From a virus: a stretch of DNA of 37,604 bases. How positions within the stretch are numbered: position 1 is the stretch's first letter; every line of letters begins with the position of its first letter. Below the pieces are notes generated by a model. It saw only the letters and a list, made by a program, of their open reading frames with translations, was not told where the DNA came from and did not search any database. Location: the UHGV virus genome UHGV-0126502; one strand, written 5' to 3'. Made by a program: the position numbers and the translations under genes. Shown here piece by piece: positions 1,250-7,092 of the stretch.

Positions 1250-1602
1250 TACGCCTCCGATGTAACAGTCGTTATTCCATAAAGAGTGTCGATTTCAGCG
1301 GAAAACATGACACGTCGGGTCGTGGTATCCACCGTCGTATTGAAAGAGAGGATTGATTTAACGCCCCGCGTTTCGAGGATGCGCTTACGGATCGCCAGGT
1401 TGTAGGTTTCAGGCTTCTGCTTACCGAGTACGGACTGGATCCACGGAGTTCCCTCGGTGGTGTCGAGAAACCATTGCCCATACCACAATTCGAATCGCGT
1501 TTTTACCGCCTGCGCCACGGCCTCCGGTGAGTTAATCAGCCAGGTGTCATCACCGCTGCCAAAGGTGTAATCGCCATCGGCGTCTTCACGTCTGTATCGC
1601 AT
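1249..1602 (-). CDS. Baseplate assembly protein W-like (gp25-like wedge)
   Basis: 117-aa ORF whose start overlaps the stop of the V-like gene; size and position match gpW/Mu gp46. Confidence 0.6.
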   Translation of the reverse strand: MRYRREDADGDYTFGSGDDTWLINSPEAVAQAVKTRFELWYGQWFLDTTEGTPWIQSVLGKQKPETYNLAIRKRILETRGVKSILSFNTTVDTTTRRVMFSAEIDTLYGITTVTSEA

Positions 1603-2354
1603 CAGTTTACTCCGTCGGTATTGCTTCCACCGCGCTGAACACCACCATGAGTGTGCGTATCATCGATTGGCTTGCCGTTAGCCTTCACGCTACCCAAAAA
1701 CTCAACAGCACCAGTGATTTTTGAAGCCACACCAGAAACAACAGCCCCCACCATGCCACCCATCCAGGTTAACAGTCCATGAATGGTTACTTTCTCAGAA
1801 AAATCAGCCAGAGGGGCAACCACATCAAGACCACCCGGAGCGACAATTTTAATTTTCCTGGTATCAGGATTAAGCTCAAAATAGGTGCTGCCGTCATCAC
1901 TACGCAACTGTGTGGCACTGGTATTAATACCGCTAATCTTCCTTGCCTGCGACTGGGGACCGACAATACAAAACGCATCCGATAAATCATGCATTCTGTC
2001 ATCGACCGGCTCCTGTATCCCGCCGCTCTGCCACCAGAAATCAATACAACGATCGGCAAAAATCACCAAACATTCATCACCGGCTTTAACTGGGAACGTT
2101 AGCGTGCATCCTCCGCCGCGCGGGAATACCACTGGCACATCCACCAGCAATGGGTAATTTTTGGTAATGCGCTTGCCGTCATTATCCTTTTCAACCGAAC
2201 GGATAGCAGGCTGCACAACTGCCGTCACCGCATCAGGATCGAATGACTGAATAATGCCAGGCAAGGCGACACGGATCTGGTTCTTTGTTGTTTCCCTTTC
2301 AGATTTGAATGTTTCGGCAAGGTCGCCGCTGCGGGTCTGGTCAGATACTGCCAT
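1602..2354 (-). CDS. Baseplate spike / assembly protein V-like
   Basis: 250-aa ORF with Gly-rich C-terminus, GGAG RBS upstream; position in baseplate module. Confidence 0.65.
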   Translation of the reverse strand: MAVSDQTRSGDLAETFKSERETTKNQIRVALPGIIQSFDPDAVTAVVQPAIRSVEKDNDGKRITKNYPLLVDVPVVFPRGGGCTLTFPVKAGDECLVIFADRCIDFWWQSGGIQEPVDDRMHDLSDAFCIVGPQSQARKISGINTSATQLRSDDGSTYFELNPDTRKIKIVAPGGLDVVAPLADFSEKVTIHGLLTWMGGMVGAVVSGVASKITGAVEFLGSVKANGKPIDDTHTHGGVQRGGSNTDGVN

Positions 2355-2372
2355 TTAGTAGGCTCCAGAAAG

Positions 2373-2396
2373 CAAAAAACCCGCCATCCGGCGGGT
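2373..2396 (-). terminator. Intrinsic terminator downstream of the lipoprotein moron
   Basis: Plus strand reads caaaaaa-CCCGCC-atcc-GGCGGG; on the minus-strand RNA this is a GC stem followed by UUUUUUG. Confidence 0.7.
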
Positions 2397-2419
2397 TTTA
2401 TGTGACTAATTTGATCTTT

Positions 2420-3145
2420 TCAGTTTATAAGCCCCATCTTACCGGCGCTTCGATAGTTAATTACATCGCCTGAAGAGCCGCAAGGCACAGCTACAGTCGA
2501 CATTTTGACAAATCCTTTACCGCCCTGCTTTTGGCATAAAGTGGCATGCATTTTTGCTAAACGCGCAGCATGACCAAAATCAATTTTGGTTCCGTAAGTT
2601 GAATCTCGTAGAGCTGCTTTTTTTGCAATTCCGGTAATATTTTTGTCTTTAATTACAGATGCAAACAAACTCAAATCATTTCCAATTTGATTGAAGCAAG
2701 TACGATTAATATCAACATCGGCATACGCTGAAATGCGTTTGCAATCTGCGATCTGAGAAAGCACAGATGTGTTAACCAGTTGCAAATTTAATTTGTAGTC
2801 ACCGACATAGGTATAAACTTTGTTAGGGTCCGTGGTTCCCGGATAACGAGTTACGAATGGAATGCTGTTGTACGCATCTCGCAAAGATTCTGCACCCTTA
2901 CTTGTAAGCTCGTTCCCAACACCATCAACGATAACCTCTGGATGTGAAACTTCAAATTGAGACTTTTCTTCGCGCTGTATTTGAAGCCTGCTTTTCTGGC
3001 TCTCCTCAACTTGCTTATCGTACGCTTGTTTTTCTTCATTTTTTTGGGATAGCCATTTTTCCTGAGCTTTAGCACCATTAGGATCCCAACTACATGAAGT
3101 TAAAAAAAGAGAAAATACGATTGTGGTTATCGCAAGCCTGCTCAC
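2420..3145 (-). CDS. Lipoprotein of unknown function (moron inside the baseplate module)
   Basis: GTG start 2 nt after the upstream stop, GAGGTG RBS; N-terminus MSRLAITTIVFSLFLTSC is a signal peptide with lipobox L-T-S-C; Lys/Glu/Gln-rich probable coiled coil follows; visibly AT-richer than neighbours. Confidence 0.7.
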   Translation of the reverse strand: MSRLAITTIVFSLFLTSCSWDPNGAKAQEKWLSQKNEEKQAYDKQVEESQKSRLQIQREEKSQFEVSHPEVIVDGVGNELTSKGAESLRDAYNSIPFVTRYPGTTDPNKVYTYVGDYKLNLQLVNTSVLSQIADCKRISAYADVDINRTCFNQIGNDLSLFASVIKDKNITGIAKKAALRDSTYGTKIDFGHAARLAKMHATLCQKQGGKGFVKMSTVAVPCGSSGDVINYRSAGKMGLIN

Positions 3146-3147
3146 TA

Positions 3148-4212
3148 TTATGCACCTCGATTCATCGCTGACTGGCTAGGAATATCACTAGCACCTCGAG
3201 CAAAGCACATCATATCCATGTACCACGCCTGGCCCCTTGTGTCGCCAGTGTACATAATCCCGCGCACAATATAAACGCCATCCGTTGCGATGCTGGCAGG
3301 CTGCGATGTGGTGCCGCTTAGCGTGATATTTCCATCCGTGTTCTGGTCGGTGATCTGACCACCAGCCATCGCAATATCGTTGTTCGACAAGGCGGTACGA
3401 TACACGGAAGCCTGATCCAGCTGAATAAGTCCGTTAACCCGGATGTTCGGACTAATAAGCGCGCGGACGTTTACGCCGTTACCGATAGTCTGCTGCGGCA
3501 TGCCAATAAGCCCGGTAGCGCTGTTGAGCACAATCGCTTCATGAACATATTTGTTATTCGCCACCATCTGGCGCTGACCGTCCACGAATTGCCATGTTGC
3601 GCCACATTGCCCGGCTACGTTATCCATTAGATGCCGCGTCATGCCAAAGAGTACCCGCCCCCGGGGGAATACAGTAGCAGGCATTTCAGGCGTCAGGCCT
3701 TCGGTCGCGCCTTTGGCTTCGAAGTCTTTCATCAGCGCACGGTTTACATCAGCGACCGTGTAACCGGCAGCCAGCGTCTGTGAGGTTATACTGGTGGCAA
3801 AAGCCAGATCAGTATCTGCTGCCTGAATCAGGACGTAGGTATCAACCGGACTGTCTTTTCCTGTGACCGAGTAGCGAATTTCACCGCTGAAAATCAGTCC
3901 GTAGTTGCGGCCATCTCTCTGGCCCACGTCCGCCGCGTCAACTTCCCGCACGGTCCCTACGTCGCTTGCTGACACCTCCGGCGCGATACCGTCGTAACCG
4001 GCAATCAGACGCACTTTCGAAAACTCCTGCCCGGTAATTCGGTTCACAGTATCTGCCGAGAGGTTATAAATTTTGATAGTCCCTACCCGGGACGCGCTGC
4101 TGATGTTGAACCAGTCGATCGTAAAGGTGACTTTGAAATCACTTAGCTCAATTCCCTGACCGTTCCCGTCCACAAGCTGCAGCTCGAAATGTCTCATCCA
4201 GTTCTGTGACAT
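3148..4212 (-). CDS. Baseplate hub-like tail protein
   Basis: 354-aa ORF between the tape-measure region and the spike; in the late operon. Confidence 0.55.
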   Translation of the reverse strand: MSQNWMRHFELQLVDGNGQGIELSDFKVTFTIDWFNISSASRVGTIKIYNLSADTVNRITGQEFSKVRLIAGYDGIAPEVSASDVGTVREVDAADVGQRDGRNYGLIFSGEIRYSVTGKDSPVDTYVLIQAADTDLAFATSITSQTLAAGYTVADVNRALMKDFEAKGATEGLTPEMPATVFPRGRVLFGMTRHLMDNVAGQCGATWQFVDGQRQMVANNKYVHEAIVLNSATGLIGMPQQTIGNGVNVRALISPNIRVNGLIQLDQASVYRTALSNNDIAMAGGQITDQNTDGNITLSGTTSQPASIATDGVYIVRGIMYTGDTRGQAWYMDMMCFARGASDIPSQSAMNRGA

Positions 4213-4214
4213 GC

Positions 4215-4517
4215 TTACTCCGTTGATACCAGTAAATGGCTGCGACCGCCCAGGTCAGTTTTTGTGGGGTAATCCTGTGTGTTGTCATCACAGACCACCA
4301 CCAGCTTAAAACCAAGCCCCATACAGGCGTACTGCGCCAGCAGGTCAGCACCAGTGACGAGAGGAATACCGGAGATTACCGGCTCCCCTCTGTCGTTCTG
4401 CAGGTCCATAATCCAGTACAGATCGCGCCATATGATGCTAATCCGCCAGGTGACACCACCCAGGACGATGCTGAACTGCTGATTGTCCGCTGTCAGCGGA
4501 ATTTCCTGAATTGTCAT
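4215..4517 (-). CDS. Small tail/baseplate protein (hypothetical)
   Basis: 100-aa ORF tightly packed (start/stop overlaps) between tail genes. Confidence 0.5.
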   Translation of the reverse strand: MTIQEIPLTADNQQFSIVLGGVTWRISIIWRDLYWIMDLQNDRGEPVISGIPLVTGADLLAQYACMGLGFKLVVVCDDNTQDYPTKTDLGGRSHLLVSTE

Positions 4518-5104
4518 TAGCCGCCCCCCAGTAATGACGCCACGTTACCCGTGATGCTTTTCAGCAGTGAAGTATCTGGAGGCTTTATGGTTTTGTTGCC
4601 GCTGTTCTGTACCGCCGACGTGCTGGCCCCTTCCTTCATGTTGGTTTTATCCGCGACGGTAATCTGCTGTGTCCGGGAGATAATGACCTCCCTCAGGGTG
4701 AGGACGGCGGACAGGACGTTTTCGGTTGTCTTGTCCGTCGTCACTTCCAGCGCCCGGATCAACATGTTGCTGTACAGCCGTTTACCGGTTACCACATCGA
4801 AGGGGATACGGCTTTCCTGCAGACCCAGTAGCTCCTGATACGTCTGCTGAGGACTCAGGCCGAGCAGGCTGGTAGCCGTCAGGTTACTGGCAAAATCCAG
4901 CAATGCGCCGCCACCGGCGAAACCAACCTCCATCACCACTTCTGACGGTTTTTTATAGGCATGATCAGCGACAGCGGCCCCGACCTCTACCGGATGCTCT
5001 GTTATTTCAAGCATATCTGTATGCTTCTCTGAAATAACAACACTGGGAACAATCATTCCTATTTTTCTGCTCTGCTGATGAAAAAGTGTAGAGAGAATAT
5101 CCAC
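4517..5104 (-). CDS. Tail protein just after the tape measure (hypothetical; possibly DNA-circulation/baseplate assembly-like)
   Basis: 195-aa ORF, start overlaps the tape-measure stop. Confidence 0.5.
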   Translation of the reverse strand: MDILSTLFHQQSRKIGMIVPSVVISEKHTDMLEITEHPVEVGAAVADHAYKKPSEVVMEVGFAGGGALLDFASNLTATSLLGLSPQQTYQELLGLQESRIPFDVVTGKRLYSNMLIRALEVTTDKTTENVLSAVLTLREVIISRTQQITVADKTNMKEGASTSAVQNSGNKTIKPPDTSLLKSITGNVASLLGGG

Positions 5105-7092
5105 TAACCCACCCTCACCTGATTACTTCGCATGACCTGAGCATTTGCAGACTGTTGCCGACGTGCAACCTCATTACCGACAGCGTGCGGATCTCCGCCA
5201 CCGTAAATGTGGTAGGTATTTTGCTGGTTAACCTCTGTCACTTTGCCACTAATTCCCGCCACGGCAGCCTTATTAATCAGCTCCCGAGAATAGATATTTC
5301 TTCCATTCTCATGCTGGATAATGCTGCTCATCAATGCTGACATGGTTTGCGGATCGCTCATATTCAGGGCAGCCCGGGGAGCCACTCCCAGTCGTTGCGA
5401 TACAGCCCTGATATACGCAGTTGTGTTGTTATTATCAGACGCAGGTGCCCAGGTAGAGATAATTTTCTCCACACTGTTTATTCCCCGTCCGGCGTACAGC
5501 ATTAACTGACGAGCAAGAGCCCGTAATCCATCAAAGGCAGTTTCAAATCTGGCAAATCGCCCGCCCGGGCGTTCAAGAGAAGCCCCTGCCTGACCAGCAA
5601 AATTAAGGTTTCCCGGATTGTTATTCCGTTCTCCTCGTTTCGTAGCCTGTGCATGTTGTTCCGGCTCATCATCACCAAACCAGCCGCGTACCGTCCGGCC
5701 CACACTGCGGGGATCGAATCCCCAGTGCTCTTTAATCCAGTCGGCAGTACTGTTAGCGCTGTCTGTAACCATCGGCATCGCTGACGGATTTTCGCTGCCC
5801 TGATTAAGTATCTGTTTGCCGATGCTGACGGCATCAGCCCAGCGGCCATCTTTGATAGCGTTGAGCAGGTCAGCGATCATGTTCAGCATTTTGCTGAATT
5901 CGCCCATCTGGTCGATGAAGTTGCTGAAATCCCACTTCAGGGACCATGATTTGGGGTCAATATTGAGCAGTTTCGCCAGCGCTTTCACCAGGTCGTTAAC
6001 GGTCGTTTTAAGGTCACGAACCATCTTCAGCGCGGCATCGACCTCCGGTTTCCACTTGCCCCAGTCAATCAGGCTGTCGCCGCCTTCCTTCCAGGTCTGA
6101 TAGTCCTCCCACAGGAGGGCAATACCCGCCGCCAGCGCGGTAATGAGGCCAATCGGCGACATCCAGAACGTACTGTTCAGAATGCGCAGCGCAATCGTCA
6201 GTGCGCCAAACAGCGAGATCAACTCCCGCGTTTGCTTATCCAGCGATTGCCACCAGGTGATAAGGCCTGATGTCCCCTCAATCAGTCTGAAGAACAGCCG
6301 CCCAATAATATCCCCGAGCGCCAGAATGCCTTTTATGGCTTTCGTCAGGGTCTGCTCGATACGAGGGAAGTTGTCCAGGATATGGCGGCGCAGGGTGTCC
6401 AGCGAACCCGCAAGCCCCCACGCAAGATTAGAGCCGATTTTGTCACGGGCCATGCCTGCCATCGCGCCAAACTCACGCAGGGAGGTCATAAATTTGTTGG
6501 AGCTTCTGGCCGCCTCGTCAGCATTGAAGCCGATAGCTTTCGCCATTGCGCTGTACTGCCCGGAGAAGCCACCCACACCCCGGCGCATCGCCATAAGGGT
6601 ATTTTCGTCAATGCCCAGCATCTGCGCATACTGGTTAGCCCGGTAATACGGCATGCTGCTGAGTTTCTGTCCAACGCCCGTAAAAATAGCGGCCATGTCA
6701 CGCATGTTACCGCTGGCATCACGGGTCTGTACGCCCAGGCGATTCAGAAAGCCTTCTGCACCGGGATTGTTACGAATAAACCGGGAGAGGCTTTCCAGAG
6801 AAGATCGCGCAGCGTCCACGCTGCCGCCAACCTGCGAAACCGCATAGCCAATAGACTGAATTCCCTGGACTGTCGCGCCGGTGCGCTGTGACGCCCAGTA
6901 AAGATTATCCAGGCCGGAGGCGATCTTAGCCGTGAAGGCCACCACGGACAGCGCAGCTCCTTCAACAGCCAGCCCCATTTTGATGACATTTGCAGTTGTA
7001 CCGGCGAGGACAGAACCGAACTTTTTCGCTCCTGCATCATCCACACTGAAGCCAAGCGAGACGAGGAAATCTTTAATAGTTTCAGCGTTCAT
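5104..7092 (-). CDS. Tail tape measure protein
   Basis: Largest ORF of the tail module, Ala/Gly-rich with internal hydrophobic helices, directly after the chaperone pair. ORF track starts at TTG 7113; ATG at 7090-7092 with GGAGAGAGG RBS is the more likely start. Confidence 0.85.
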   Translation of the reverse strand: MNAETIKDFLVSLGFSVDDAGAKKFGSVLAGTTANVIKMGLAVEGAALSVVAFTAKIASGLDNLYWASQRTGATVQGIQSIGYAVSQVGGSVDAARSSLESLSRFIRNNPGAEGFLNRLGVQTRDASGNMRDMAAIFTGVGQKLSSMPYYRANQYAQMLGIDENTLMAMRRGVGGFSGQYSAMAKAIGFNADEAARSSNKFMTSLREFGAMAGMARDKIGSNLAWGLAGSLDTLRRHILDNFPRIEQTLTKAIKGILALGDIIGRLFFRLIEGTSGLITWWQSLDKQTRELISLFGALTIALRILNSTFWMSPIGLITALAAGIALLWEDYQTWKEGGDSLIDWGKWKPEVDAALKMVRDLKTTVNDLVKALAKLLNIDPKSWSLKWDFSNFIDQMGEFSKMLNMIADLLNAIKDGRWADAVSIGKQILNQGSENPSAMPMVTDSANSTADWIKEHWGFDPRSVGRTVRGWFGDDEPEQHAQATKRGERNNNPGNLNFAGQAGASLERPGGRFARFETAFDGLRALARQLMLYAGRGINSVEKIISTWAPASDNNNTTAYIRAVSQRLGVAPRAALNMSDPQTMSALMSSIIQHENGRNIYSRELINKAAVAGISGKVTEVNQQNTYHIYGGGDPHAVGNEVARRQQSANAQVMRSNQVRVG

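Follow-up and report, generated by a model that had tools for sequence, protein, structure and literature searches.

The window analyzed here is a 37,604-nucleotide (nt) stretch of viral DNA, UHGV virus genome UHGV-0126502, in which a gene for a 241-amino-acid (aa) lipoprotein lies between the baseplate hub and baseplate spike genes. The hub-spike junction is a cargo hotspot, a slot that related phages fill with differing genes. Comparison across relatives shows that the lipoprotein is an old, functional and mobile resident of this slot rather than a recent import. As to its function, we tentatively favor a non-structural periplasmic exclusion factor of a SEN34-type phage, possibly aimed at the tail tip. 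The features of the slot and its borders are listed below.

1602-2354, minus strand: baseplate spike, the first gene 3' of the slot, with a Gp138-type N-terminal domain (E 1.5e-44), an Apex motif (E 1e-4) and its ATG at 2354
2366-2399, minus strand: intrinsic terminator with stem AAAACCCGCC/GGCGGGUUUU, a GGAU loop and a U-rich tail, ending about 20 nt before the spike start and forming the downstream border of the slot
2420-3145, minus strand: prolipoprotein coding sequence from the list of open reading frames (ORFs), 241 aa, with a GTG start at 3145 and a TAA stop at 2420-2422
3148-4212, minus strand: baseplate hub (E217 gp41-like, phrog_196), assigned by profile matches
3153-3158, minus strand: Shine-Dalgarno sequence GAGGTG, 7 nt before the GTG and within the last hub codons, read directly from the sequence
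3247-3275, minus strand: promoter-like site in hub codons (GVYI...MYTGD), with a -35 element TTTATA (3275-3270), a 17-nt spacer and a -10 element TACACT (3252-3247)

An earlier note on this DNA took the baseplate genes for a Mu-type module, in which hub and spike would normally adjoin. Neither view survives comparison with relatives. The module is of the SEN34/E217/Pam3 type (Dit-like protein, gp18 plug, gp41-like hub, Gp138-like spike) and not Mu-type in the strict sense. Among 123 SEN34-type loci that hold both hub and spike, drawn from GTDB genomes, IMG/VR and annotated collections, the gap between the two genes contains at least one gene in 120 and is empty in three. The slot ranges from 52 to 2148 base pairs (bp) and shows 36 gene arrangements, encoding 39 clusters of proteins of at least 50 aa. 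Its first gene encodes an exported protein in 118 of the loci, namely the secreted protein c0 in 96, the lipoprotein family in 14 and the secreted protein c7 (153-180 aa) in eight, and in these 118 it begins between -10 and +7 nt from the hub stop. Two of the hub-bearing records, from Chryseobacterium sp. 18061 (L016) and Bacillus sp. AFS073361 (L049, a 255-bp contig), show this enterobacterial prophage hub at 91-96% identity and are likely assembly contamination.

The genes in second position are more varied. They include a YafO toxin, T5orf172/MUG113, DUF2335 and DUF4282 proteins, a secreted OB-fold protein and a PycTM-like membrane protein. PADLOC gave a weak PycTM match for one cargo family (E 5e-5) and recognized no main cargo family. 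The commonest second-position cargo, found in 30 loci (for example L010, L011 and L061), is a two-gene pair of c1 (243-266 aa) and c2 (123-142 aa). Neither protein has a Pfam match, and by eye c2 contains a HEPN-like stretch, RAYYGMYHSA, making the pair a candidate two-gene defense or toxin system.

The lipoprotein is polymorphic even among close relatives. The nearest deposited phages are vB_EcoM-689R2, 611R5, 606R2 and 683R1, whose flanks are 98% identical to those in the window, followed by Yersinia phage YP3 and Salmonella phage SEN34. All six lack the lipoprotein, and each instead has c0 (111-113 aa in close deposited phages) followed by a differing second gene. The gene is no conserved structural part of all related tail modules with a GC content like theirs, and its description as moron-like, bracketed as a moron would be, holds good. 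Among 5,426 complete Escherichia coli genomes, 304 contain the junction flanks and 12 of those 304 contain the lipoprotein; in E. coli NCTC9022 and CREC-544 the locus is 100% identical to that in the window. The last ~19 hub codons (~3148-3204) differ from those of the 98%-identical phages, and we therefore place the upstream recombination border of the cassette there. In Rouxiella aceris (L026) the slot holds the lipoprotein, c0 and two further genes, showing that the two first-position families do not fully exclude each other. Kinship between lipoprotein and c0 was considered and rejected (BLASTP E 1.7; hhalign E 0.087).

Several features of the lipoprotein gene had been read correctly from the start. 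It encodes 241 aa with a lipoprotein signal, and it is rich in adenine and thymine (AT), with a guanine-plus-cytosine (GC) fraction of 0.409, where the hub has 0.538 and the spike 0.502. The GTG begins 2 nt after the hub stop TAA (3148-3150), and the position of the Shine-Dalgarno sequence inside the hub end points to translational coupling of the lipoprotein to the hub. The exact lipoprotein sequence is present on 121 contigs in public data. Its ratio of nonsynonymous to synonymous substitution rates (dN/dS) is 0.11-0.14, compared with 0.04-0.09 in the neighboring genes. This purifying selection, together with conservation down to 36-41% identity in other genera, indicates that the gene is real and not a chance ORF.

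The terminator proved to be a property of the slot. The hairpin (2399 to 2376) has a 10-bp stem with six G-C pairs and a fold energy of -19.3 kcal/mol (z = -2.25), and it is the sole terminator-like site within 1500-4500. It had been credited to the lipoprotein as the gene's own terminator; a canonical hairpin does precede the spike, but its ownership by the lipoprotein gene was rejected on comparison with relatives. The same hairpin, AACCCGCC-NNNN-GGCGGGTTTTTT, precedes the spike start by about 20 nt in relatives whose cargo is unrelated, other hairpins occupy this place in diverged lineages, and a terminator-like site occurs in 117 of the 123 loci, including all three with empty slots. Because it is present with any cargo and with none, the terminator belongs to the slot. 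An Rfam scan of the window found nothing.

The promoter-like site lies about 100 nt upstream of the lipoprotein start and contains a conserved -10-like hexamer, TAYACT. By score it would have attracted little attention. A consensus promoter scan of the window reported none on the minus strand, the embedded site falling below the tool's threshold, and in a looser scan with a position weight matrix TTTATA-17-TACACT matched eight of 12 consensus positions, an unremarkable score. Its interest comes from comparative analysis only. Across lineages the conserved form is T[TG]TATA-17-TA[TC]ACT, and in locus L004 TTTATA-17-TATACT is the one promoter-like site that the tool detects on the plus strand within 2 kb. 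We compared the hexamer among 32 distinct hub lineages below 90% identity. In 22 of the 27 diverged lineages its Thr is encoded by ACT, which makes up 17.5% of Thr codons hub-wide (binomial P ~7e-13), and a Thr three codons downstream is ACT in two of the 32. The pattern TAnnnT occurs in all 22 lineages with a slot longer than 450 bp and is absent from six of the seven with c0 only and from all three that are empty (Fisher P 3.6e-7, uncorrected for phylogeny). The hub-embedded site may therefore be regarded as a candidate slot promoter, apparently kept by selection on synonymous sites.

The lipoprotein family is very small and bound to one kind of tail module. A word-indexed search returned 15 clusters of homologues, and an exhaustive profile search of 1.84 billion representatives returned 36 family members, whose entries are all unnamed, "lipoprotein" or "hypothetical". 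The window's protein has no Pfam match at E <= 0.1, and NCBIfam and PADLOC were likewise uninformative. The sole PHROG match is to phrog_3727, of unknown function (E 0.0047), over the signal peptide and helix, and tblastn against 50,697 deposited phage genomes gave no lipoprotein match. Hosts range from Escherichia to Serratia, Rouxiella and Limnobaculum, and the gene also occurs in clinical E. coli and Salmonella isolates. It stands directly after the hub in all 29 IMG/VR loci and in L004-L007, L025 and L026. The most distant member, P0041 (341 aa; L161:5683-6708 and L162:884-1909), is encoded one junction earlier, between plug and hub, with a terminator of its own behind it; in that lineage the hub gene overlaps the spike gene. 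Longer members of the family, 330-379 aa in length, have an extra N-terminal domain of ~150 aa before the helix, and these long-form relatives have no informative Pfam or NCBIfam match. In the 379-aa long form from Serratia sp. PL17 (L025), an extra Cys-containing domain lies between the lipid anchor and the helix-equivalent segment.

Low GC and an unusual position had been taken to imply recent foreign insertion, and the family's history contradicts this. Homologues 36-47% identical occupy the same position beside hubs that are 46-64% identical, so that identity declines together with the module. The GC deficit, 8-21 points, is found in every lineage (all 14 copies), and is therefore a family trait and not a sign of recent import; we rejected recent horizontal import as a reading of the low GC because the deficit persists in all co-diverged lineages. 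Exchange has also occurred. In L144 a lipoprotein of 47% identity sits between flanks of ~91% identity, and in L141 the synonymous divergence of the lipoprotein is 0.09 against 0.48-1.06 in its flanks.

The protein itself has three parts, with the coordinates given here.

3092-3145, minus strand: signal peptide, residues 1-18, ending in the lipobox L-T-S-C (3092-3103), with Cys18 as the predicted lipidated first mature residue
2945-3082, minus strand: long K/E/Q-rich alpha-helix, residues 22-67, in the AlphaFold (AF2) model at a predicted local distance difference test score (pLDDT) of 88-95, ~7 nm if straight
2423-2944, minus strand: globular alpha/beta C-terminal domain, residues 68-241, with the motifs HPE, FVTR, C..R.SAY..C and HAARLAKMH

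The N-terminus, MSRLAITTIVFSLFLTSC, comprises an n-region, an h-region and the lipobox, and the positively charged n-region and hydrophobic h-region of MSRLAITTIVFSLF-LTSC give it the form of a lipoprotein signal. All 15 aligned homologues have Cys18, which is predicted to be lipidated. A lipobox is found in 39 of 42 family members; of the exceptions, P0042 and P0047 have no signal peptide at the start and look N-terminally truncated, and P0025 has a plain signal peptide. In E. coli, lipoproteins without Asp at position +2 are sorted by the Lol system to the outer membrane. The +2 residue after the Cys is Ser here and S, G, A, T, V, R, N, F or M across the family, never Asp, which would imply outer-membrane sorting.

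The AF2 model is confident overall (pLDDT 85.9; predicted template modeling score 0.73), showing a 46-residue helix and then an alpha/beta domain. The N-terminal half had been described as coiled-coil-like; there is a helical segment, but it spans only residues 22-67 and not half of the protein. Its sequence varies among homologues with the charge pattern retained, and on the model we propose that it serves as a spacer between lipid anchor and globular domain. In some E. coli RefSeq genomes the Prokaryotic Genome Annotation Pipeline calls the protein "HMG-box domain-containing protein" (hits H24, H27 and H28), presumably a spurious low-complexity artefact of the K/E/Q-rich helix. The C-terminal domain carries four conserved cysteines, Cys135, Cys150, Cys204 and Cys222, which probably form two disulfides. 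Over 15 lipoprotein homologues the mean column identity is 62%, and the invariant or near-invariant positions are Cys18, HPE, FVTR, C135, R137, SAY, C150, HAARLAKMH, C204 and C222. The best match of the model in BFVD had E 0.66, and no fold match was found there or in the PDB. The family's hidden Markov model also finds the c7 slot proteins (E 6e-15 to 4e-13), which resemble P0025 in having an ordinary signal peptide and lacking the lipid anchor, so that the domain also occurs in a soluble periplasmic form.

The phage around the slot is a SEN34-type temperate myophage with lambdoid regulation and a contractile tail, SEN34 itself being a myovirus with lambdoid regulation (PMC5261728). The order around the gene is tape-measure, Dit-like protein, Pam3 gp18-type plug, E217 gp41-type hub, lipoprotein, Gp138-type spike with apex motif, gp25-like wedge and baseplate J. 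All late genes from ~20.8 kb down to 50 lie on the minus strand. The late operon has an antiterminator gene at its head.

21172-21594, minus strand: Q-type antiterminator gene (Pfam Phage_antitermQ, E 2.7e-30)

By analogy, the late operon would be Q-dependent and its internal terminator read through in lytic growth; an antiterminator in this position explains how late transcription could pass the slot terminator. The window also encodes a CI-type repressor, an integrase and a lysis cassette of holin, DUF2570 (Rz-like) protein and an Rz1-like LysC lipoprotein at 19405-19749. The C-terminal ~200 aa of the tape-measure (5104-5700, minus strand) match Endolysin 7q47_A (E 1.2e-13) and Gp29 9vvp_L (E 1.2e-20), and RefSeq names a tape-measure homologue lytic transglycosylase. 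Given the endolysin match, we take the tail to carry a peptidoglycan hydrolase.

Elsewhere in the window, the early region (22379-36013) departs from what is usual in a lambdoid prophage. Its products include PrimPol/DUF5906 (22379-24643), a DUF2800 PD-(D/E)XK nuclease (27830-29131), an Nmad5 nucleotide-modification-associated domain (29717-30385), a family A DNA polymerase (30779-32842) and an SNF2 helicase (34520-36013), a set that suggests self-encoded replication, possibly with DNA modification. Between the Q antiterminator and primase genes lies a second AT-rich island (21600-22800, GC 0.38-0.39) that may be another accessory cassette; its 139-aa ORF (21643-22062, minus strand) has no Pfam match. 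A further AT-rich stretch (18100-19400, GC 0.43) separates the small terminase and lysis genes. The opposite-strand ORF there (18162-19106, plus strand, 314 aa, TTG start), without a Pfam match, could be spurious or an antisense moron.

In the model that we favor, the charged, ~7-nm helix would hold a disulfide-stabilized globular domain deep in the periplasm. In the lysogen, the slot would be transcribed weakly by itself, with transcription ending at the terminator. After induction, Q-antiterminated late transcription would pass the terminator, and the protein would be made with the tails, coupled to the hub. The outcome would be exclusion at the level of the envelope, whereby phages that share this tail type, among them progeny released by the cell itself, are kept from wasting or completing injection. 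Rather than plugging of an outer-membrane receptor, the more plausible target would be the periplasmic step of tail-tip penetration, that is, the tape-measure with its C-terminal peptidoglycan hydrolase, or the spike. The ORF, lipobox, coupling and terminator are read from the sequence, and comparison shows the slot polymorphism, the exclusive hub linkage, the purifying selection, the cassette exchange and the conservation of the -10-like hexamer; lipidation and localization, as well as promoter activity, read-through and all of the functional steps, are what we infer.

A role in superinfection exclusion is plausible by analogy. Exclusion and progeny protection are favored because the first slot gene nearly always encodes an exported protein, because it would be co-expressed with the tails and because progeny-protecting exclusion proteins are known (bioRxiv 10.1101/2024.03.05.583538). 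A periplasmic target is favored because the helix moves the domain off the membrane, because lipid-free variants exist, because the gene is linked to hub, tape-measure and spike, and because the tape-measure C-terminus is endolysin-like. The soluble periplasmic variant of the domain also argues against a mechanism that needs a seat on an outer-membrane receptor.

The same observations set bounds on this exclusion model. The lipoprotein has no homology to any characterized exclusion protein in Pfam, NCBIfam, PADLOC, PHROGs, PDB or BFVD, and its interaction with tape-measure, lysin or spike is proposed by analogy. The retention of the terminator in the three empty slots means that a terminator alone is no proof of lysogenic expression. 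The window's promoter-like site is weak (8/12, TACACT), with about one equally scoring site per kb on that strand, and it lies within a conserved peptide, so that coding constraint could explain part of its conservation. The statistics linking hexamer and cargo ignore phylogeny, and the c0-only and empty lineages may amount to just two or three clades. A permissive insertion site could be enough to explain the linkage to the hub. All of these points weigh against periplasmic exclusion from a slot with its own expression, and are reasons for holding that explanation tentatively.

Four other functions deserve consideration. The earlier note had likened the protein to Cor and Llp, and a receptor-masking lipoprotein of this type would lie beneath a receptor in the outer membrane, where it would prevent phages that use this receptor from adsorbing or being triggered. 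Llp binds FhuA from the periplasmic side (PMC9586334; bioRxiv 10.64898/2026.03.26.714494), and a predicted outer-membrane-sorted lipoprotein from a tail operon, evolving faster than the flanking structural genes, would fit such a role. We nevertheless consider it unlikely. The protein resembles Cor and Llp in neither family, PHROG, sequence nor fold. It has three to four times their size, the note having called it far larger, and the 7-nm spacer shifts the domain off the membrane; relatives of the same domain have no lipid anchor at all. The gene is linked to the hub and not to fiber or receptor-binding genes, its allele does not track spike or tape-measure alleles, and the family spans Escherichia to Serratia, Rouxiella and Limnobaculum yet keeps to one tail family. 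This restriction bears equally on a lysogenic-conversion factor that would aid the bacterium apart from phages, through serum resistance, adhesion or envelope robustness, as do lambda Bor and plasmid TraT. Moron-like layout, low GC, occurrence in clinical E. coli and Salmonella and a predicted outer-membrane lipoprotein of TraT-like size are all compatible with conversion. A gene found only by the hub of one tail type among the 1.84 billion representatives, however, is hard to explain as a general host-fitness gene; there is no match to the Bor or TraT Pfam families, the hosts include insect- and plant-associated genera, and the gene is tightly coupled in translation to a late structural gene. 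We judge conversion to be quite unlikely.

That coupling to the hub, within a Q-dependent late operon, would instead suit a lytic-cycle helper made only with the late genes, a periplasmic aid to lysis or egress or to conditioning of the wall around lysis. An exported protein after the hub in nearly all loci suggests a near-universal need, and six diverged c0 lineages have no -10-like hexamer, three of them also having no terminator. Such a helper is very unlikely all the same, as the phage has a complete lysis cassette (holin, Rz-like DUF2570 protein and Rz1-like LysC), three lineages with an empty slot indicate that the function is dispensable, and non-homologous proteins freely replace each other. 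An Rz1-type o-spanin was likewise rejected; the phage's own LysC/Rz1-like gene adjoins DUF2570 and holin, and the 241-aa protein, encoded 16 kb away, is far larger. A structural or assembly component of the baseplate, which the position between hub and spike and the co-divergence with the module might suggest, is close to refuted. The Sec/lipoprotein signal directs the protein out of the cytoplasm, where tails assemble, and because it is exported it should be part of neither virion nor assembly. The gene is also missing from functional phages that are 98% identical, and is replaced by unrelated proteins or by nothing.

It is tempting to carry periplasmic exclusion further, although we regard this extension as rather unlikely to hold in full. 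The slot might be a dedicated expression dock, with a promoter in hub codons and a fixed terminator, whose first gene encodes a periplasmic "immunity" protein matched to the penetration machinery of the tail. Two unrelated folds would fill this role, the c0 beta-barrel and the lipoprotein/c7 domain. The lipoprotein would then be a new tail-tip inhibitor, held at peptidoglycan depth on a rigid helix and neutralizing the tape-measure lysin or the spike of virions that arrive from outside or return to the cell, in a logic akin to effector-immunity pairing in type VI secretion.

If the slot works as proposed, widespread enterobacterial prophages hold a plug-and-play site in the baseplate operon that serves, in the lysogen as in lytic growth, to express envelope proteins along with other cargo. 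It would be a defined place to mine for exclusion and defense genes, almost none of its 39 clusters being annotated, and a clean example of a promoter kept by selection on synonymous sites of a structural gene. With a confident model and no detectable fold relative, the lipoprotein lends itself to study as a candidate for a new mechanism of exclusion after adsorption in Gram-negative bacteria, of relevance to predicting which lysogens resist therapeutic or competing phages. Should the gene have no phage-related phenotype, it would be an ordinary orphan moron.

The gene behaves as a moron does, and its product perhaps acts as exclusion lipoproteins do. The lipoprotein stands outside the Cor, Llp, Ltp, Spackle, Bor, TraT and spanin families, yet the arrangement shares much with known systems. 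Lambdoid morons such as HK97 gp15 and lambda bor and lom are also extra AT-rich genes in a Q-antiterminated late operon, with a terminator downstream, a promoter-like site upstream and presence or absence among near-identical phages. Here, in contrast, the dock is fixed and reusable, the putative promoter hexamer is embedded in structural-gene codons, the terminator persists in the empty slot and the first cargo gene is coupled to the hub. Llp of T5 and Cor of phi80, N15 and HK022, all FhuA blockers, are phage lipoproteins sorted to the outer membrane, as is predicted here, and are encoded among tail genes; their exclusion of other phages and protection of progeny are the model for the function we propose. 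Llp and Cor are ~60-80 aa long. They have no homology or fold match to the 241-aa protein. The gene in question always lies by the hub and not by the receptor-binding protein gene, at least four genes away from fiber genes, and its product has a long spacer helix and a lipid-free variant.

The closest functional parallels act after adsorption. Spackle of T4 is a periplasmic inhibitor of the gp5 tail lysozyme (PMC7677548), and Ltp of the Streptococcus thermophilus phage TP-J34 is an exclusion lipoprotein whose reported target is the tape-measure protein (PMC3952083). Both are exported phage proteins that act on tail-tip machinery, and the cognate type of target, a peptidoglycan hydrolase at the tape-measure C-terminus, exists in this phage, where the gene adjoins tail-tip genes. 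Neither has sequence or structural similarity to the lipoprotein, and their genomic settings differ, Spackle being an early gene of a virulent phage and Ltp lying in a lysogeny module, whereas the lipoprotein is encoded in the baseplate operon.

We found no literature description of the slot, the embedded promoter-like site or the lipoprotein family. The hotspot concept is established by the P2 and P4 prophages, whose hotspots house anti-phage systems (PMC9122126) and share with this slot conserved flanks and highly variable cargo, some of it toxin- or defense-like (YafO, T5orf172, PycTM-like). The slot described here differs in lying in the baseplate operon of another phage family and in having an exported protein almost always in first position, and together with its embedded promoter-like site and its lipoprotein family it appears new to the literature.

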